DNA from: Clostridia bacterium
GTDB lineage: Bacteria > Bacillota > Clostridia > UMGS1883 > UMGS1540
Assembly: GCA_045577075.1 (NCBI GenBank)
Contig: JAZNHR010000025.1
Coordinates: forward strand, 1-63,135
DNA: 63,135 nt
Direction of reading: 5' to 3'
A model generated the notes under the pieces. That model searched no databases and had not been told where the DNA came from. It worked only from the letters and a program-made list of their open reading frames with translations. Position numbers and translations under genes: made by a program. Positions 29,074-56,826 of this stretch are shown here, piece after piece. Each line of letters opens with the position of its first letter. Positions within the stretch are counted from its first letter, which is position 1.

Positions 29074-29094
29074 GATACGTCTTCCTTTTATAAA

Positions 29095-29706
29095 AAATTT
29101 GGTGGTAGAATACGGAGTAAATTTTGCGGCATAGGTCCGAGACGGATTTCCCACTTCCGTGCCCGCGCGTCGCCGCTCCGGGCCGTTTCCGATTAAACAG
29201 AAGCCGAGCCAGAGGCTCGATTCGGATTGCCACTTAGTCCGCACTGCAATCCTCCGTATTCCACAGGTTACTGAACAGCCTAGGAGATTTCCTCAACAGT
29301 CAAACCGACTCTTAGCCTTTTTTGCAGATAGGATTTCAAACAGCAATATCTCCGATTTGTTGGCCGACAAATCGGGGCATGAACCGTTATCCTTCATACC
29401 CACGCAAGGCAGGCTACTCTGCCCACAGCGCCAATACGGCACCGCATGGCAGGTTTACTCCTACGCCGTACTCCGCCCTGTCGCCCACAAGGGACGAGCA
29501 GAGGTAGAAGCACGTACGCAGGTCTCCACGGAAAAGGGGTCAACGCTCGCATGCCATTGCGAATCGCCCCTAAACCTTAACCCCCAGCATCGACCCCCGA
29601 CTGGGCGTCGAAAGCCAACACCAGGAACTTCATCGATATGCCCTTCTACGGATTTTTAGGCCCGTCTTGGGAACCGGCATCCTGACTAGGATACTGCACC
29701 ACCTTT
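29095..29706 (-). ncRNA. ole: large structured non-coding RNA, candidate OLE (ornate large extremophilic) RNA
   Basis: About 610 nt between its own consensus promoter and the oapA-like gene, with no credible ORF. Many perfect local hairpins, for example CCGATTTGT/ACAAATCGG at 29352-29375 and CGAGCC/GGCTCG at 29205-29219. A 5'/3' closing helix GGUGGU (29698-29703) pairs with ACCACC (29101-29106). The ncRNA-oapA-dxs-tlyA context matches the known OLE locus. Boundaries are approximate. Confidence 0.65.
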
Positions 29707-29712
29707 CCATGC

Positions 29713-29741
29713 AGTATATCATATCTTTCGCACTTTGTCAA
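29713..29741 (-). promoter_or_regulatory. consensus sigma-A promoter of the OLE-like RNA
   Basis: Minus strand: TTGACA (29741-29736), 17-nt spacer, TATACT (29718-29713). Begins 3 nt after the prmC stop. Confidence 0.75.
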
Positions 29742-47632: not shown

Positions 47633-47660
47633 AAAAGGGACAGTTTACTGTCCCTTTTTT
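47633..47660. terminator. bidirectional terminator between araC-like gene and rnpB
   Basis: AAAAGGGACAG-TTTA-CTGTCCCTTTT. Confidence 0.8.
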
Positions 47661-47664
47661 ATAT

Positions 47665-47996
47665 GAGCAAGCCTGTAAGCCGAGTTCTGTCAAAAGCAAT
47701 CATCTATCTACGCCGCACATCGCTATGCGGCTTTAGCCACCAGTCGAAGAAGCGCCGGGCCGGCTTATCTCTTCTGTCGGTGTTGCACCGAGTGGGGTTT
47801 ATACGGCCGGTATGTCGCCATACCGCCGGTGAGCTCTTACCTCGCCTTTCCATCCTTACCACAAAAAGTGGCGGTTGTTTTCTGTTACACTATCCTTAGA
47901 GTCGCCTCCACCAGACGTTATCTGGCACCCTTGCCCTATGGTGCTCGGACTTTCCTCACCAAAGCGAACGCTTTGCCGCGATTGCCCAGCTTACTC
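47665..47996 (-). ncRNA. rnpB: RNase P RNA
   Basis: Minus strand contains the universal P4 elements GAGGAAAGTCCGAGC and ACAGAACTCGGCTTACAG. P1 helix GAGTAAGC/GCTTGCTC defines the ends. The plus-strand track ORFs here are spurious. Confidence 0.9.
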
Positions 47997-48048
47997 ATAT
48001 GGATAGTATAACACAGGAAAGAGAGCGTTGTCAACGGTTTTCTGTCTT

Positions 48049-49954: not shown

Positions 49955-51940
49955 ATGTTCAAAATGAAGAAACGAATTGTATGCTTATGCCTGCTTTTAC
50001 AGTTTATTTTACCTGTTCGTGCGGCGGAAATATGGTCGGAGAAAACAGAAAAAATTGTAACCGAAGGCGTACGGCTAATACAGGAAGAACAGTTTTCGAC
50101 GGGTGGTTGGCAAAGTGTACACATACTGGAAATTGACCTTACAAATGAAAATTTGGAGCTTTCCACGCTTTTTGACAGCCGCGGTATAAGTAAAAGCAAA
50201 ACCGTGCTGAAAATGGCAGAAGAAAATGGAGTGGTAGCAGCTATAAATGGGGACTTTTTCAACTGGACGGGCACGCCGCTCGGATTTACTGTGCAGGACG
50301 GCAAGGTAATTTCCTCTCCTTCCCATGACCCGGGCCTTGCCGCGTTTATGGAAACCGAGGACGGGAGCGTGCTTTTTGACTATGTGGATATGTCGCTCTT
50401 TGTTACTTGCCCTGCAGGGTATAAGGCAGAAATTATTCATATCAATAAATACCATTCCATGCAGTCCATGGTGCTGTATACATCCGATTGGGGCAAAAAA
50501 ACGCCCGGCAGCCATGACGGTGTTTCCGAGCTTGTAGTCATAGATGGCATTGTACAGGAAATCCGTCTGGAGCAAGACGGCGTGGAAGTGCCGGAAAACG
50601 GCTATGTTCTAGCAACGTCTACCAAGACGAGCACATATCTTGTGGATAATTTCAAGCCGGGTGATGCGGTGGAGCTTTCCTACAGTCTTATGCCTGATAT
50701 TGAAAATATAAAGACTGCAATTGGAGGCGGTTCGGTACTGGTTAAAGACGGCAAACGTGCGGAATTTACCAATATTATTTCCGGCACACATCCGAGAACG
50801 GCAATCGGCATTGATAAGACGGGCGAAAAATTGTTTTTAGTCGCGGTAGACGGCAGGCAGACGGCCATGGCAGGCTTTACCCAGACACAGCTTGCAGAGT
50901 ACATGATTTCCCTCGGCGCTTATGGGGCACTGAATTTGGACGGCGGCGGCAGTACTACCATGGTGGCGAGAAACGGGGAAACGGGGACCCTTGAGGTTGT
51001 CAACACGGTTTCGGACGGCGCGCAACGTCCCGTTTCTACCGGCGTTGGCGTGCAGTTTACGGGGGAAGTAGGCACATTTACTTCTCTCAAAATCAGCGTC
51101 CATGGCAGTCCCGTTCTTGAAGGCGGCGAAGCGCATATAAGCCTTGGTGCCTATGATGAGTATCATAACCCCGTATATATAGCAGACAGAGAAATCACCT
51201 ATACGTCGGACGATGGCGACTTTGTTGGTAACGTATTTTATCCGGCGCATATCGGAAAATGTACAATAGAGGTCGCGTGTGACGGCGTTACGGCATCGAA
51301 AGAGATTGACGTTTTGCCGCGGCCGACTGCCTTTGCAGAAGAAAAACCAAAAAGCGGCGAAAGTGTTTTGATTTTGCCCGGCAAAGGCGCGGAAAATACT
51401 TTCCTTGCCGGACTTGTAAATAAGAGGCTTACCCAAATGGCAGACAGTGAGGAAACTGTGTTTGCATTCGGACAATATAAGGGCACGGCGGCAAGGGAAG
51501 TATCACGCTTTTCTGCGACAGAGCTAGAAAACAGCCTGTTTGTCACCATAGATGCAGGGCTCGGCAGTATTCGGGAAGTGGACAGCGCGCAGTGGCGATA
51601 CATTTTAGAGCTTTGTGAGAAAACGGACAAGAGAAACGTATTTTTCCTGCTGTCTGCACCCATTTCTGCGTTTACTGACGCTAAAGAAGCGGCACTTTTT
51701 GAGCGTGTGCTTTCGGAAACCTTGCGCGGACAAGGGACGGACGTATTTGTCATTACCACAGGCGAGAAAACAGAGCTTACGGAGAAAAACGGAATTCGTT
51801 ATATTTCTGTTGCGAAAACGGCAGCTATATCTGCCGAGCATTTATTTGACGATGCAAAGCAATGCGGCGTTCGCCTGACAGTCGAAGGCGACAGTGTGCA
51901 TTTTGAAACGGTACCGCTTTGGACACGGGAGGGACAGTAA
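49955..51940 (+). CDS. secreted phosphodiester glycosidase family protein (DUF2233/NAGPA-like) with Ig-like repeat
   Basis: 661 aa with signal peptide. Motifs AAINGDFF, RTAIGIDKTG..LVAVDGRQ and ALNLDGGGS. An extended -10 TGcTATAAT lies at 49929-49937. Confidence 0.8.
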   Translation: MFKMKKRIVCLCLLLQFILPVRAAEIWSEKTEKIVTEGVRLIQEEQFSTGGWQSVHILEIDLTNENLELSTLFDSRGISKSKTVLKMAEENGVVAAINGDFFNWTGTPLGFTVQDGKVISSPSHDPGLAAFMETEDGSVLFDYVDMSLFVTCPAGYKAEIIHINKYHSMQSMVLYTSDWGKKTPGSHDGVSELVVIDGIVQEIRLEQDGVEVPENGYVLATSTKTSTYLVDNFKPGDAVELSYSLMPDIENIKTAIGGGSVLVKDGKRAEFTNIISGTHPRTAIGIDKTGEKLFLVAVDGRQTAMAGFTQTQLAEYMISLGAYGALNLDGGGSTTMVARNGETGTLEVVNTVSDGAQRPVSTGVGVQFTGEVGTFTSLKISVHGSPVLEGGEAHISLGAYDEYHNPVYIADREITYTSDDGDFVGNVFYPAHIGKCTIEVACDGVTASKEIDVLPRPTAFAEEKPKSGESVLILPGKGAENTFLAGLVNKRLTQMADSEETVFAFGQYKGTAAREVSRFSATELENSLFVTIDAGLGSIREVDSAQWRYILELCEKTDKRNVFFLLSAPISAFTDAKEAALFERVLSETLRGQGTDVFVITTGEKTELTEKNGIRYISVAKTAAISAEHLFDDAKQCGVRLTVEGDSVHFETVPLWTREGQ

Positions 51941-52848
51941 TGCGTTACCTTATAGGTATTGATGAAGAGCGTGGCGAAGGTGTACTTTGTACGGAAACGG
52001 GCATTGCGTTGCGGCATGTAAAAACGGAAAACGGGGATGTACTTCGGCTCATCGAAAATATGACAGAAAAAATGCCCGTTCCCACAAGGCAAACGGCGAT
52101 ACATATTTGCCTTGGGGACAGGGCGGACGGCGCGGCGTGTGACAGACTTGAGGCAGAAATTACAGCCAAAATGGGAGAGAAGACGGCGGTAGCTTGTGAG
52201 GATAGAATGGTGCACCGCCTATATAGCTGTTTTGAAAAGGATGAGCCGGGGGTTGTGCTGTATGCATTTCCCGATGCCGGTGCCGGCAGACTACATGAAG
52301 GCGGTCTTGCAGTTGTTGGCGGCATGGGCGCACCCGTTTGGAGTGCGGGCAGTTGTTATCTTCTGGCGGCAGACACCATTCGGGCGGCACTTTCTGCGGC
52401 AGATAAAACCGGGCGGCCGACGGTGCTTACGTCCCTTTTGGAGCAGGCGGTGGGGCTGCCAATTGAGGATGTAAGGCAAGAAATCAGCAAAATGACAGAC
52501 GAAAAAATTGCTTCCTATGCAAGGCTTGCGGCAAAGGGCAACGCGTTAGGAGATGCGGTGGCAACAGAGCTGTGCGAGGCGATGACCGCGCCCCTTGCCG
52601 AATATGTGCGCGCCTTGTCTTTGTCGGGAGAAAGTGTGGCGGTAAAAATAACGGAAGTCCCAAGCTTTCTCCGTCCCTTTCTAAAAAAAGAACTTGGGAA
52701 ACTGCTTGGGAAAGGCTTTACCCTCTCCTTTTCGGATGCACCGATTTTGCTAGGCGGCGTGCGCCGGGCAGGCGAGATGCTTGGACTTTCCTGCGGTGCG
52801 GACTTTTGCCGAACATTTCTGGAAACATATTCAGTTGTAAGAAAATAA
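51940..52848 (+). CDS. BadF/BadG/BcrA/BcrD-type ATPase-like protein (GlcNAc-kinase-like), degenerate phosphate-1 motif
   Basis: ATG 51940 overlaps the upstream TAA (TAATG) and follows GGGAGGG. N-terminus reads YLIGIDEERGEG where the family has GIDGGGTKT. Family assignment is weak. Confidence 0.45.
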   Translation: MRYLIGIDEERGEGVLCTETGIALRHVKTENGDVLRLIENMTEKMPVPTRQTAIHICLGDRADGAACDRLEAEITAKMGEKTAVACEDRMVHRLYSCFEKDEPGVVLYAFPDAGAGRLHEGGLAVVGGMGAPVWSAGSCYLLAADTIRAALSAADKTGRPTVLTSLLEQAVGLPIEDVRQEISKMTDEKIASYARLAAKGNALGDAVATELCEAMTAPLAEYVRALSLSGESVAVKITEVPSFLRPFLKKELGKLLGKGFTLSFSDAPILLGGVRRAGEMLGLSCGADFCRTFLETYSVVRK

Positions 52849-52885: not shown

Positions 52886-54220
52886 CTAAATATGTAGAAT
52901 CATTTTTGCCACGGTAAAATAAAGCGCAAGAGCGCAGATGTCCACGATAGTGGTAATAATGGGGGAGGCCATAATGGCAGGGTCAAGCCCCAGCTTTTTT
53001 GCGCCGATAGGGAGAAGACAGCCGACAGATTTTGCAATAATTACTGTTGCCAATAAACTGATGCCGACTACAAGGCCGAGGGCAAAATTATGGTCATAGA
53101 AAAGATAGATGCGAAGGAGACTAACGAGAGCGAGAACGATGCCGCATAAAACGGCAATGCGAATCTCACGCCACCAGACTCTAAGGGCATCTCGCCCTTC
53201 GATTTCGCCAAGGGAAAGACCGCGGATAATAAGGGTTGAAGCCTGCGACCCACAGTTACCGCCCGTATTCATCAGCATGGGCATAAACGATACTAAAATG
53301 GGCATAACGGCGAAAGAATCCTGAAATTTCGTTAAGATTGAACCGGCGAAAATGGACGACAGCATCAGGAGCACCAGCCAAAGCACGCGGCGCTTTGCGT
53401 GGGCAAAAACGCCGGTTTTGAGGTACGGCGCTTCCGAAGGGGTCATAGCCGCCATAAGTTCAAAGTCCTCGGTGTTTTCCTGCTGCAAAACCTCCACGGC
53501 ATCGTCAATAGTGATGATGCCAACAAGCCGCCGTTCCCGGTCTACAACGGGCAGGGACAAAAAGTCATATTTCTGGAAAAGGTTTGCGATGGTTTCTCTG
53601 TCCTCGTCCGTGGAAACATAGATGACGTTTGTATCCATTATATCGCCGACAAGGGCATCCGTGTGCGCCAGAAGTAAATCCTTGGCAGTAACAATCCCCT
53701 CGAGTTTCCTGTTTTCATCCATGACGTAGCAGGTATAAATTGTTTCTTTATCCGGGCCGGTGCGGCGAATGGTGTCAAATGCCGCCCCCACGGTCATTTC
53801 CTTTTTCAGACCCACAAACTCAATGGTCATAAGACTCCCTGCGGAGTCATCCTCATACTTCAGAAAGCGGTTTATAAGTGCGCGTTTTTGCCCGGTGGTA
53901 TTTGCAAGCACACGCTTTACAACGTTTGCCGGCATTTCCTCAATAAAGTCAACGGCGTCATCGAGGAAAAGCTCGTCAATAATGCCGGAAAGCTCACGGT
54001 CCGTAATGCTTTCCACAATATGCATCTGCGTATCCGTTTCCATATAGCTGAAAACGTCCGCTGCCATACCTTTCGGGAGAAGTCGGAACACCCTTACGCA
54101 GTCTTCGTCCTCCAGCTCGTCAAAAAGCTCTGCCACGTCAACAATGTTCGCTTCCTCCAAAATAGAGCGAATTTTCATGTATTGCCGTGTTCTTAAAAGT
54201 TCTACAATGTTTTCAAACAT
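52886..54220 (-). CDS. mgtE: magnesium transporter MgtE
   Basis: 444 aa. N domain, tandem CBS domains, and TM domain with the GNCGSQ motif. Confidence 0.95.
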   Translation of the reverse strand: MFENIVELLRTRQYMKIRSILEEANIVDVAELFDELEDEDCVRVFRLLPKGMAADVFSYMETDTQMHIVESITDRELSGIIDELFLDDAVDFIEEMPANVVKRVLANTTGQKRALINRFLKYEDDSAGSLMTIEFVGLKKEMTVGAAFDTIRRTGPDKETIYTCYVMDENRKLEGIVTAKDLLLAHTDALVGDIMDTNVIYVSTDEDRETIANLFQKYDFLSLPVVDRERRLVGIITIDDAVEVLQQENTEDFELMAAMTPSEAPYLKTGVFAHAKRRVLWLVLLMLSSIFAGSILTKFQDSFAVMPILVSFMPMLMNTGGNCGSQASTLIIRGLSLGEIEGRDALRVWWREIRIAVLCGIVLALVSLLRIYLFYDHNFALGLVVGISLLATVIIAKSVGCLLPIGAKKLGLDPAIMASPIITTIVDICALALYFTVAKMILHI

Positions 54221-54422
54221 AAAAAAAGCCTCCCTTCTACCTAGGGCGGCAAGCAGGAAACGGGGGCGGCAGAAAGCCGTCCGTCAGTTTTTCAATATGC
54301 CACCCGAAGAGGGCGGTCTATGCTATCGGAAAGACTTGCAGACTGCCCCCGTAAACAAAGTTTTCATCCATAATCGACCGGGATATCCGTCCACAAGCTC
54401 ACTTCCTTTTCTCCTAAATTCT
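54221..54422 (-). promoter_or_regulatory. structured 5' leader of mgtE with terminator/RBS-sequestering hairpin (candidate riboswitch, class not recognised)
   Basis: Terminator GCCGCCCU-AGGUAGA-AGGGAGGC followed by U7 and then AUG (54250-54221) contains the RBS. Long-range helix ACGGGGGC (54352-54345) pairs with GCCCCCGU (54267-54260). Hairpin CCGCCC/GGGUGG at 54300-54316. The CCGCCCU heptamer occurs twice. Confidence 0.55.
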
Positions 54423-54428
54423 TTTACC

Positions 54429-54457
54429 AGTATATCACAAAAAATCGAGTTTGTAAA
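54429..54457 (-). promoter_or_regulatory. sigma-A promoter of the mgtE leader
   Basis: Minus strand: TTTACA (54457-54452), 17-nt spacer, TATACT (54434-54429). Confidence 0.65.
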
Positions 54458-54476
54458 GATTTTTAAAAGAAAAAAT

Positions 54477-54504
54477 GCCTTGCAAAGGAATTCCTTTGCA
54501 AGGC
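54477..54504 (-). terminator. intrinsic terminator after pcrA
   Basis: Perfect 12-bp palindrome GCCTTGCAAAGG-AATT-CCTTTGCAAGGC, followed by TTTTTT on the minus strand. Confidence 0.85.
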
Positions 54505-54512
54505 ACCGGTGT

Positions 54513-56711
54513 TTATTGTATTTTTTCAAGCTTTGCGTACGTTGCCAGAAGGGTTTTCTTCCCGGCCGAAAGAAAGTTAATTTCAAGCTTTGTGTCATTA
54601 CCTACGGGCACGGCAGAAAGAATGGTACCTTCCCCGAACTTCTTATGGCGAACGGTATCGCCAGCCTTAAGGTCACACGCGGTGGCTTTAGGGGCAGGGG
54701 ATGCAAAGGAGACAATGGTTGTACCAAACTGTGCCGGCCGCACGCGGCGCGGTGTGACGGGGGGCAGGTCCACACTAAAGCTTTGCGCGCCTTCCTCCGC
54801 ATACAGCGTTTCGGGAATATCCAGCATAAAACGGGAAACCCGATTTCGCGTAGTGGTGCCCATAAGGGTGCGGGTTTGGGCGTGGGTAATATAGAGGTTT
54901 GATTTCGCTCTTGTCAGCGCCACATAGCAAAGGCGGCGTTCTTCTTCAATCTCCGCGCTTTCGTACACGGCACGGAAGGAGGGAAATACCCCCTCTTCAA
55001 AGCCGGCAAGAAAGACGGTGGGAAATTCCAGACCTTTTGCCGTATGAATGGTCATGAGCGTTACCATGTCCATATCCTCGTCGTAATCGTCCACGTCCGA
55101 AACGAGGGCGATGTTGTCCAGAAAATCGGTTAAAGAGGATACTTCCGCTTCTTTTTCATATTTAAGCCCTACGGACAAAAATTCCTGCAGATTTTCAAGC
55201 CGCGCCGCATCTTCCGGATTCTCCGGATTAAATTGCGCGGTATAATTGGTTTTTTCAAAAATCAGCTTAATCAGTGCCGTGATGGATATTTCGCCTATTT
55301 CTTTTCGGATTTCTTCTATCAGTTCCGAAAAGGCGTGCATTTTTGCCCAAGACGAGCCAACGGCAGACGCGAAGGCATCGCTGCGAATGACGCCGTAGAG
55401 GCTCATTTCGTTTTCTTCCGCAATCTGCATGGCGCGCCCTAAAGAAGTAGCTCCAATGCCGCGCTTCGGCTCGTTAATAATGCGGGAAAGACTCACCGTA
55501 TCGTCCGGGTTATGCACCGTGCGAAGGTATGCAATGATGTCCTTAATTTCTTTCGCATCATAGAAGCGGTGCCCTTTAATAATCTTATAGGGGACAGCGT
55601 TTAAAAGAAGCTGTTCTTCTATGGGACGGGACTGGACGTTCATGCGGTATAAAACAACCATATCGCTATAGGGAATCCCTTCCTGGCGATGGAGGCGGGC
55701 AAGCTCCGAGGCAATGTAGCTTGCCTCGTCATATTCCGTATTTGCGCGGTACTTTATAATTTTATTCCCTTCGCCGTTATCCGTCCAAAGGTGTTTACCG
55801 AGCCGCTCTGTGTTATGCGCGATGACCGCGTTTGCGGCATCAAGAATGTTCTGGGTGGAACGGTAGTTTTGCTCAAGACGGATGGTTTTGGCATCGGGGA
55901 AGGATTTTTCAAACTGTAAAATGTTTTGAATGTCGGCACCGCGGAATTTGTAGATACTCTGGTCCTCGTCACCGACCACGCAGAGATTTCTGTGCTTTTC
56001 GGCAAGAAGGCTGACAAGGCGGTACTGCACCGCGTTGGTGTCCTGATACTCATCAACATGAATGTACTTAAACTTGTTGCGGTAATATTCCAAGACTTCG
56101 GGACACTCCTCGAAAAGGCGTACCGTCAGGCACAAAAGGTCATCAAAGTCCACCGCGTTAAATTTTTTGAGGCTCGCCTGATATCGGGCATATACCTTGC
56201 AAAAGCCTTCCATGCGGAAGTTTCCCCGGTGAAATTCACTGTAGCTTTCAGGCGTCATCATTTCGTTCTTTGCAGCGGAAATGTTGGAAAGGCAGGCAGA
56301 TACGGTATAGGTTTTCTCGTCCAGATTTAACGCTTTCAGACATTCCTTAACCACTGCCTTCTGCTCTGCGGCATCGTAAATCGTAAAATCCGCACCGTAG
56401 CCGATTTTCTCGATGTCACGGCGCAAAAACCGAACACAAGCAGAGTGGAAGGTACGCGCCCAGATATAAGCTGCGTCCTCGCCAACAAGCGTCTGCAAGC
56501 GGTTTTTCATTTCTGCCGCCGCTTTATTCGTAAAGGTGATAGCCAGTATGTTTTGGGGATTGACATGCTTTTCGCTGATTAAATAGGCAATTCGGTAGGT
56601 AAGGACCCGGGTTTTGCCGCTGCCTGCACCTGCCAGAACTAAAAGGGGGCCTTCCGTCGTTGTCACAGCCTCGCATTGTACTCGATTTAGTTTTGTCAGT
56701 AAAGTATGCAT
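54513..56711 (-). CDS. pcrA: ATP-dependent DNA helicase PcrA (UvrD family)
   Basis: ATG 56711 (MHTLLTKLNRVQCEAV..AGAGSGKT) after GAGAGGA. Helicase motifs I-VI present. Confidence 0.93.
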   Translation of the reverse strand: MHTLLTKLNRVQCEAVTTTEGPLLVLAGAGSGKTRVLTYRIAYLISEKHVNPQNILAITFTNKAAAEMKNRLQTLVGEDAAYIWARTFHSACVRFLRRDIEKIGYGADFTIYDAAEQKAVVKECLKALNLDEKTYTVSACLSNISAAKNEMMTPESYSEFHRGNFRMEGFCKVYARYQASLKKFNAVDFDDLLCLTVRLFEECPEVLEYYRNKFKYIHVDEYQDTNAVQYRLVSLLAEKHRNLCVVGDEDQSIYKFRGADIQNILQFEKSFPDAKTIRLEQNYRSTQNILDAANAVIAHNTERLGKHLWTDNGEGNKIIKYRANTEYDEASYIASELARLHRQEGIPYSDMVVLYRMNVQSRPIEEQLLLNAVPYKIIKGHRFYDAKEIKDIIAYLRTVHNPDDTVSLSRIINEPKRGIGATSLGRAMQIAEENEMSLYGVIRSDAFASAVGSSWAKMHAFSELIEEIRKEIGEISITALIKLIFEKTNYTAQFNPENPEDAARLENLQEFLSVGLKYEKEAEVSSLTDFLDNIALVSDVDDYDEDMDMVTLMTIHTAKGLEFPTVFLAGFEEGVFPSFRAVYESAEIEEERRLCYVALTRAKSNLYITHAQTRTLMGTTTRNRVSRFMLDIPETLYAEEGAQSFSVDLPPVTPRRVRPAQFGTTIVSFASPAPKATACDLKAGDTVRHKKFGEGTILSAVPVGNDTKLEINFLSAGKKTLLATYAKLEKIQ

Positions 56712-56826
56712 AAAAGTCCTCTCTCGTAAACAGAAAAAGGGCTGACCACAATGCACTGACCACGTAAAGCATTTTGCTTTGCGCCTTTCTCGCCTTGTGA
56801 TGCAGCCCTTTATATATCTGTATTTT

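Follow-up and report, generated by a model that had tools for sequence, protein, structure and literature searches.

The window analysed here is the 63,135-nt contig JAZNHR010000025.1 of a Clostridia bacterium (assembly GCA_045577075.1), and the element in question is the 5' leader of its mgtE gene, which encodes a Mg2+ channel. The gene lies on the minus strand (52886-54220) and encodes 444 amino acids, in which a domain search found MgtE_N, two CBS domains and MgtE. Its promoter (54429-54457, minus strand) has a -35 element TTTACA at 54457-54452, a 17-nt spacer and a -10 element TATACT at 54434-54429, extended by a TG at 54437-54436. It is the only sigma-70-like site within 54100-54650, with a predicted transcription start near 54422, and the layout TTTACAA / TGnTAnAAT is also seen 5' of every homologous leader. 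The gene upstream encodes a PcrA/UvrD-type helicase (54513-56756) and has a strong intrinsic terminator of its own at 54507-54474 (minus strand); the mgtE leader is therefore a separate transcription unit. Between promoter and gene lie a short open reading frame (ORF) and a set of mutually exclusive helices, and the leader is probably a leader-peptide attenuator rather than a riboswitch.

The strongest conservation in the leader falls on this short upstream ORF (uORF), which was not seen in the first-pass annotation, made from the window sequence alone. It starts with GUG at 54394, comprises 23 codons (MDGYPGRLWMKTLFTGAVCKSFR) and ends with UAG at 54325-54323, the whole occupying 54323-54394 on the minus strand. 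It is preceded by an extended Shine-Dalgarno (SD) sequence, AAAAGGAAGUGA (54399-54410, minus strand), complementary to the 3' end of 16S rRNA save for one central base, with 7 nt between GGAAG and the start codon. The conserved part consists of codons 1-7 (54394-54374), which read MDGYPGR and include GAC at 54391-54389 and CGA at 54376-54374. The pattern RTGGACNNNYAYCCNGRNCGA is unique in the window, where 0.01 matches are expected. A 91-aa ORF listed at 54323-54598 (minus strand) was not accepted as a gene. In the upstream direction the uORF frame has no stop through the promoter and into the pcrA terminator and the end of the helicase gene, and ORF lists therefore contain this spurious longer ORF, which hides the 23-codon uORF.

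Loci for comparison were gathered by scanning a genome collection with the MgtE protein, by a pattern scan of metagenomes and from contigs encoding MgtE homologues, with ten exact-protein look-ups supplying further loci of the last kind. The pattern scan of metagenome contigs, which used a degenerate SD plus uORF pattern, returned a single locus, L081. Twenty-one leaders homologous to that of the window were found and 20 were aligned; L094, which is one base different from L081, was left out. The MgtE proteins of the loci with aligned leaders are 57-92% identical to that of the window. Two loci of a more distant lineage with an MgtE 57% identical, L100 and L101, have mgtE about 40 nt after pnp and carry no leader, uORF or M-box.

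The most conserved block across the leaders is AAAGGAAGUGA, followed after 7-10 nt by RUG GAC NNN [UC]A[UC] CCN G[GA]N CGA. The encoded start, M-D-[GSA]-[YH]-P-[GE]-R, is found upstream of mgtE in 20 distinct aligned leaders, and the nucleotide pattern occurs once per locus, upstream of mgtE, in 29 fetched loci. The SD sequence of the uORF is kept as AAAGGA[AU]GUGA in 19 of the 20 leaders at a spacing of 7-10 nt, and the start codon is GUG in 11 and AUG in 9, with no other codon used. Variation in codons 4-6 is mostly in the third position (UAU/UAC, CCC/CCG, GGU/GGG); the first and second positions are nearly fixed, and amino acid changes are few (Y/H and one G to E). The aspartate codon is always GAC and the arginine codon always CGA (20/20), the latter making up 7.4% of the arginine codons in the long ORFs of the window. 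In all 20 leaders the uORF frame runs for 19-38 codons without a stop, and it always ends 3' of a pairing strand called arm A. Past codon 8, arm A is read in all three frames (GAV, GQS/GRS, GG) across the leaders, so this region is conserved as RNA and not as peptide. As judged from these sequences, the uORF is probably translated.

Four RNA segments can be recognized in the leader, all on the minus strand, and they pair in mutually exclusive ways. Segment 1 (54379-54406), the 5' strand of a helix named P0, comprises the spacer between SD and start codon, the start codon itself, GAC and CCCG; with segment 2 it gives a duplex of -26.7 kcal/mol in RNAduplex. Segment 2 or arm A (ACGGGGGCAGUCUGCAAGUCUUUCCG, 54327-54352) is the 3' strand of P0 and coincides with uORF codons 15-23. 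Within it, GGGCAGUC (54348-54341) is also the 5' strand of an antiterminator helix, P1, whose other strand is segment 3 or arm B (GACCGCCC, 54311-54318). Arm B can pair with arm A, with GGGUGG or with the arm that holds the SD sequence of mgtE. In the window P1 has seven of eight pairs, with one A.C mismatch. Segment 4 is the SD sequence of mgtE with the U-tract behind it and belongs to the last helix, T (54221-54250), which is kept in 20/20 leaders and is a predicted terminator and SD sequestrator. In the window T consists of arm D (GCCGCCCU, 54250-54243), the loop AGGUAGA and arm E (AGGGAGGC, 54235-54228), the latter being the SD sequence of mgtE, and it is followed by seven U residues (54227-54221) directly before the AUG of mgtE at 54220. 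Its stem also has seven of eight pairs, and owing to the single G.A mismatch a simple terminator scan did not call it. An SD-containing arm followed by 5-8 U directly before the mgtE start is found in 20/20 leaders. Segment 2 begins 35-47 nt past the uORF start in every one of the 20.

P0 was predicted unaided by RNAalifold on a plain MAFFT alignment. The alignment cells of this helix are paired in 89.8% of cases, against 34-49% with slid partners. Compensatory changes are seen at five pairs, and the first base of the start codon and the base opposite it change together (GC in 10, AU in 8). The 3' half of the MAFFT alignment was set aside for pair counts, arm B being misaligned there because the loops vary. 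The helices were instead assessed by comparing cognate arms with arms swapped between leaders, with 5000 permutations for each helix. The cognate arms paired better in all cases, with -24.1 kcal/mol against -19.5 for P0, -18.8 against -16.0 for P1 and -11.4 against -9.6 for T, and in each case 0 of the 5000 permutations reached the cognate mean. The arms of P1 change together between leaders: GGGCAGUC with GACUGCCC in L009, GGGCGGUC with GACCGCC in L088 and L004, GGGGUGG with CCAUCCC in L006, GGAGCG with CGCUCU in L092, GAGCGGU with ACCGCUC in L082 and GGGCGGU with GCCGUCC in L085 (arm A given first). In L081, L082, L085, L086, L088, L090, L092, L096, L098, L008 and L009 one G of arm B, at the same place in each, is paired in P1 and left mismatched or bulged in T. 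Since this G is unpaired only in T, the antiterminator is perfect and the terminator imperfect in every compact form of the leader. The ORF, its pattern of conservation, the three alternative helices and their co-variation can thus be read from the compared sequences, and a conserved element made of uORF and helices very probably exists.

P0 overlaps the conserved codons, and the two kinds of conservation can be told apart in part. The spacer between SD and start codon, which lies in P0, drifts freely with compensation (GCUU, ACUUU, AUUGC, GGAUUC and others), whereas codons 2, 5 and 7 stay as they are. In the leaders with histidine at codon 4 (His-type), the block CCG-GGG-CGA lies outside the P0 helix yet is fixed. 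Both observations argue against pairing as the whole explanation of the codon conservation. In unconstrained folds the SD arm of mgtE is paired in 20/20 leaders, and P0 together with T is the predicted ground state in most. Masking segment 2 leaves the SD arm paired in nearly all leaders.

The leaders occur in a compact and an extended form. Eleven compact leaders have 90-139 nt between the two start codons and contain the four segments only, except that L008 and L009 have extra hairpins inside the loop of T; in L081, L088, L096 and L098, for example, the distance is 91-100 nt. In compact leaders with start codons 90-111 nt apart, P1 is a perfect helix of 7-9 bp and T uses the same 3' arm with the SD sequence, has a conserved G mismatched or bulged and is followed by U6-U8. 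The window and L001-L007 have an insertion in the T loop consisting of arm C, a variable hairpin P3 and arm D, which is a second CCGCCCU. Arm C (GGGUGGC, 54299-54305, minus strand) is a relay that can pair with B or D; it is specific to the window, L001-L004 and L007 and is absent from the compact forms. P3 occupies 54260-54282 (minus strand), its hairpin GGACGGC-UUUCU-GCCGCCC lying at 54282-54264 and its 3' side containing GCCCCCGU. Relatives also have a hairpin at this position between C and D, of unrelated sequence. In the window, pairing of B with E and C with D can form a single long helix, the fold of minimum energy if the U-tract is taken into account, and the alternative is B with C and D with E, the arrangement described in the first-pass annotation. 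The switch logic is predicted to be unchanged by the insertion: when A holds B, C would hold D and the SD sequence would be free. An extra small GC hairpin is present at the 5' end of the leader, between the -10 element and the uORF SD, in L003, L005 (CGGCAAAAUAUGCCG, for example) and L006, and may be a stabilizer; the window has no such hairpin.

The first-pass annotation had suggested, as a possibility, a divergent or new class of cis-regulatory RNA for Mg2+ homeostasis, with pairing typical of riboswitches. What it described in the window is there, on the minus strand: the TTTACA-17-TATACT promoter, the hairpin of GCCGCCCU, AGGUAGA and AGGGAGGC with its U7 and AUG, a GC helix of 8 bp formed by the perfectly complementary ACGGGGGC (54352-54345) and GCCCCCGU (54267-54260), the heptamer CCGCCCU in two copies (54316-54310 and 54249-54243), GGGUGGC at 54305-54299 and the CCGCCC/GGGUGG hairpin. 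Its view of the leader as a cis-regulatory element with mutually exclusive pairings that end in a terminator and SD-sequestering hairpin also holds. Of the pairings that it described, the terminal SD hairpin and U-tract recur in 20/20 leaders, and the 8-bp helix is impossible in L001, the closest relative; this helix was rejected as a conserved element. The presumed sensing core as a whole, made up of the 8-bp helix and the CCGCCC/GGGUGG hairpin with what lies between, is present in the window and variable or absent in relatives whose MgtE is 60-92% identical. The idea of a ligand-binding class is not supported by the comparison, in which the strongest conservation is that of the uORF. The compact relatives, of about 92 nt, consist of an ORF and two alternative helices, which is too little for an aptamer, and the leader is most likely not a riboswitch.

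In Firmicutes the textbook control of mgtE is the M-box (ykoK) riboswitch, which the first-pass annotation had failed to recognize in the leader. The Rfam search that it had suggested agrees with it. No Rfam family reached its gathering score in the leader, and on the mgtE strand between 54150 and 54560 the best Rfam match at E <= 10 had E = 7.5, which is noise level. The M-box model RF00380 (threshold 44 bits) gave no match at gathering score in the window and none at E <= 10 in 54150-54560, and the covariance model RF01056 (Mg_sensor) did not match the leader at E <= 10. The M-box result is meaningful because the same scan scores M-boxes at 137-146 bits in other mgtE loci. The M-box and other Rfam families were accordingly rejected as the identity of the leader for want of a covariance-model match, and a classical amino acid attenuator was rejected because there is no run of regulatory codons.

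The arrangement of the four segments suggests a ribosome-dependent (leader-peptide) attenuator of the ermC/MgtL type, a reading that is favoured with some reserve. With no ribosome on the leader, segments 1 and 2 (P0) and segments 3 and 4 (T) would pair, and mgtE would be off, as T resembles an intrinsic terminator and would hide the ribosome-binding site of mgtE; in the window the 3:4 pairing would run via the duplicated arms C and D. A ribosome lingering on M-D-G-Y-P-G-R, with codons 5-7 encoding Pro-Gly-Arg, would cover segment 1 and leave segment 2 uncovered. The invariant rare CGA is the last of these conserved codons. Free segment 2 could then pair with segment 3 to form P1, leaving segment 4 single-stranded, so that read-through would occur, the SD sequence would be open and mgtE would be on. 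A ribosome that is not delayed would enter segment 2, P1 would be blocked, T would form and mgtE would be off. The geometry fits a pause on the uORF, since the constant spacing of 35-47 nt puts the beginning of segment 2 in every leader immediately beyond the stretch covered by a ribosome that has codon 6-7 in its P site.

The leader most likely works like the MgtL/mgtA leader of Salmonella and E. coli (RF01056) and like the erm-type attenuators, and is a member of neither by model or by sequence. As in the mgtA leader, a short ORF lies in the leader of a Mg2+ importer gene and has an acidic residue at position 2 and a proline at position 5 (MEPDP... in MgtL, MDGYP... in the window). In both, the critical event would fall within the first six or seven codons, and translation of the ORF would pick between alternative helices that decide transcription, the last two points being established for MgtL and proposed for the mgtE leader. 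A proline-containing ORF overlapping alternative helices is present here too, with segments 1 and 2 and the invariant Pro5, and points to a likeness of working and not to homology. The two leaders have no similarity in sequence or by covariance model. The mgtA system controls a P-type ATPase through Rho-dependent termination in Enterobacteria, whereas the present leader precedes a channel gene in Clostridia and ends in a predicted terminator-like, SD-hiding hairpin with U7; its peptide is less rich in aspartate, glutamate and proline (D/E/P) than MgtL and carries an invariant rare CGA, and unlike in MgtL the uORF start is sequestered in a helix, P0.

The likeness to the ermC and ermB attenuators (and to cat, vmlR and msrD) lies in the layout: pairing of 1:2 and 3:4 is off and 2:3 is on, with segment 1 placed in the leader ORF and the SD sequence of the regulated gene contained in segment 4. 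Those systems are triggered when a ribosome arrests within about the first ten codons, and the same trigger is proposed here. The leader has a short ORF with its own SD sequence and start (AAAAGGAAGUGA, 7 nt, GUG; RUG in the 20 leaders), helices 1:2, 2:3 and 3:4 that exclude one another, the ORF taking in both segment 1 and segment 2, and a last helix hiding the SD sequence of the regulated gene, of which AGGGAGGC is the 3' arm, paired in 20/20 free folds. The ermC-type attenuators differ in sensing ribosome-bound antibiotics, whereas the gene here is that of a Mg2+ channel and the peptide is unrelated. They differ also in that segment 4 of the mgtE leader carries a U-tract, so that transcription termination is probably part of the output.

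Other systems resemble the leader in fewer respects. The M-box (ykoK leader, RF00380) also occupies Firmicute mgtE 5' leaders and acts by terminator formation, off at high Mg2+, but its aptamer is absent from the window leader. The M-box leader of pe20 in M. tuberculosis has a conserved uORF2 (Rv1805A) with a conserved N-terminus and an invariant proline (RNA 2026, PMC12810186), and is thus a precedent for a conserved proline-bearing small uORF in a Mg2+-related leader. Its peptide is stated to be specific to mycobacteria and follows an M-box aptamer whose output is Rho-dependent termination, and the leader belongs to pe20-mgtC and not to mgtE (PMC12810186). The Thioalkalivibrio mgtE motif is a candidate cis-regulatory RNA upstream of mgtE in which a stem encloses the SD sequence and start codon (Breaker laboratory, NAR 2024, PMC11109978). 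It is reported from one gammaproteobacterial genus only and is described as a four-stem riboswitch candidate with no uORF (PMC11109978); it is set apart here by its description, as the negative result with Rfam 15 may not cover that motif. Full-text literature searches did not turn up any account of a leader peptide or uORF for mgtE in Firmicutes, and a leader-peptide switch seems to be undescribed for mgtE.

Other Firmicutes and Treponema also have related uORFs of the type M-[DE]-x-x-P ahead of mgtE. Of 70 more distant mgtE loci, 19 have an M-[DE]-x(1-3)-P ORF with an SD sequence upstream of mgtE in the sense direction, against 0 of 70 in antisense. A second group, in L012, L021, L040, L065 and L075, encodes MD[ED][YHS]PR[SE]... 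and has its uORF start sequestered by P0-type pairing of -23 to -34 kcal/mol. The arginine after the proline is always CGA (5/5), and a separate clear terminator of GC hairpin and U-tract lies before the mgtE SD sequence in four of the five; none was seen in L021. Among the 19 loci are five from Treponema metagenome-assembled genomes (L023, L026, L031, L050 and L071), in which a conserved uORF with an SD sequence, MDDPDGSTDYHIR..., lies 229-285 nt upstream of mgtE. This uORF is rich in D and P, like MgtL, and the mgtE product is about 55% identical to the Clostridial ones.

The M-box itself is present in only 4 of 80 genome mgtE loci, all from Tissierella, Sedimentibacter and relatives (L062 1178-1341, L069 1168-1331, L074 1178-1340 and L078 426-589; 137-146 bits). 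Behind each of these M-boxes and its terminator, about 70 nt downstream and directly before mgtE, lies a uORF encoding MDSGP[IL]P. This sister switch has a P0-type helix and an SD hairpin in the four-segment layout and measures 91-98 nt. The tandem position ties the uORF device to Mg2+ control, and the order of M-box, M-box terminator and uORF switch makes these two separate devices that can act one after the other. The regulated gene, the likeness to MgtL and this sister switch together suggest that low Mg2+ may be what slows ribosomes on the uORF. Less confidence is attached to Mg2+ as the signal, and to the site of the pause, than to the existence of the conserved element of uORF and helices.

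Several observations weigh against a pausing ribosome as the switch or qualify the evidence. A search for RNA-seq runs that contain the locus gave none. With segment 1 masked the SD arm is freed in 10 of 20 leaders only and stays paired in the remaining half. The window is among the latter, with the SD sequence still sequestered at -53.2 kcal/mol, against -47.3 with the SD sequence forced open, and the arrangement of the first-pass annotation (A:B' + B:C + D:E, -33.9) beats the ON state (A:B + C:D, -30.2). Because equilibrium favours the OFF fold, the ON state of the window must be a kinetic one, formed during transcription; such kinetic products are usual for attenuators. The whole leader folds no better than shuffled sequence (z = -0.97), and the signal above chance comes from the comparison of relatives and not from the window alone. 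Codons 1-5 lie in P0, so that their conservation, above all that of GAC, may derive partly from pairing. In the compact forms the uORF ends in or beside arm B, at a distance from the mgtE start that is mostly 16-37 nt and reaches 67 nt in L008. A ribosome terminating there would keep T from forming as well, a different logic in which translation itself would turn mgtE on. Ribosomes could drop off instead of pausing, in which case P0 might re-form. In Bacillus-type Firmicutes RNA polymerase outruns ribosomes, which makes the timing tight for a terminator only about 90 nt downstream.

The peptide adds to these points. MgtL begins MEPDPT, and its translation is aborted somewhere in the first six residues, more so at low Mg2+, and mgtA is induced in this way (bioRxiv 10.1101/2021.02.02.429294). 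A count of four D/E/P residues in six picks internal D/E/P-rich segments (bioRxiv 10.1101/2021.02.02.429294). MDGYPGR has only two in the six residues after Met and MDEYPR of the sister group three, and only the acidic residue 2 and the proline 5 are common to them and MgtL. With two of six below four of six, the uORF peptide was not filed under ribosome-destabilizing (IRD) sequences.

Other explanations of the leader share some of this evidence. That the RNA itself responds to Mg2+ or another ligand, with the short ORF incidental or a by-product of pairing, is improbable. At high Mg2+, for example, T might form because P0 or the GC-rich domain 54352-54260 is stabilized by the ion. P0 plus T as the predicted ground state in most leaders would suit such a sensor, and so would the stable domain closed by the 8-bp helix in the window; pairing in P0 could explain part of the conservation of the codons that it covers. 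An RNA-only response to Mg2+ has been proposed for the Salmonella mgtA leader, which gives it a precedent. However, the domain of the 8-bp helix is not conserved even in L001, and no conserved unpaired core or junction is found in the leaders, the compact relatives being two alternative hairpins. The fold is no better than that of shuffled sequences, no Rfam model matches, and the start is kept as RUG and its SD sequence at 7-10 nt while the spacer in the same helix drifts. GGN-CGA is fixed in the His-type leaders although it lies outside P0, and M-D-x-x-P is found again in families whose nucleotide sequences are unrelated. If the conserved block were a site for a trans-acting protein or small RNA that controls termination or access to the SD sequence, and its ORF appearance coincidental, neither variation with codon periodicity nor the geometry of SD sequence and start would be expected. 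About 40 nt of highly conserved sequence could in principle serve as such a site, but the neighbouring genes differ between loci and include no linked candidate regulator, and the helices already make a complete cis-acting switch. This explanation is very improbable.

A further possibility, judged unlikely, is that the uORF is translated and is not specific for Mg2+. It could be a constitutive coupler, where T is opened by ribosomes that complete the uORF, giving a basal level of mgtE, or a general gauge of translation speed like those of erm, vmlR and msrD, where ribosomes stalled for any cause lead to more Mg2+ import. The ermC-type attenuators use the same four-segment layout, and no feature of the sequence names Mg2+ as the signal. 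A ribosome terminating at the uORF stop of the compact forms, in or next to arm B and 16-37 nt from the mgtE start, would melt T. A constitutive coupler, on the other hand, would need neither an invariant peptide nor a rare codon. Against this possibility as a whole stand the occurrence of the element only upstream of mgtE at every locus examined, the sister family in tandem with M-box riboswitches and the acidic-2/proline-5 N-terminus in common with MgtL.

The genes flanking the homologous leaders vary between loci and mgtE is always downstream. The 3' end of mgtE in the window faces a convergent ORF of 309 aa (51919-52848, plus strand), for which no Pfam match was obtained at E <= 0.001. Elsewhere in the window lie a full-length OLE (ornate large extremophilic) RNA (29086-29718, minus strand, 485.7 bits) and an RNase P RNA (47660-47997, minus strand).

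For the ribosome-dependent attenuator, a wider reading can be put forward tentatively. Nascent chains of the type M-[D/E]-x-x-P might be a general, ribosome-intrinsic gauge of Mg2+, recruited repeatedly or anciently for Mg2+ importers, and CGA, which is read by inosine-adenosine wobble, might add a second Mg2+-sensitive pause. So read, the gauge would span MgtL in Proteobacteria, MDxYPGR, MD[ED]xPRSR and MDSGP[IL]P in Firmicutes and MDDPDG in Treponema, and the device would possibly do the job of the M-box in most of the sampled mgtE loci (MgtE at least 53% identical).

Of the 80 closest species-level mgtE loci that were fetched, 4 have the M-box and about 30 an M-D-x-x-P leader ORF. If the model of a leader-peptide attenuator is right, translation of a mini-gene would be the means by which many gut and rumen Clostridia sense Mg2+ or ribosome state, and the principle of MgtL would extend from Enterobacteria to Gram-positives and from MgtA to MgtE. 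The compact forms of 92 nt would be a handy system for the study of pausing caused by a seven-residue nascent chain and a single rare codon. Leaders of this type are easily mistaken for orphan riboswitches, and annotation pipelines miss both the uORF and the switch.

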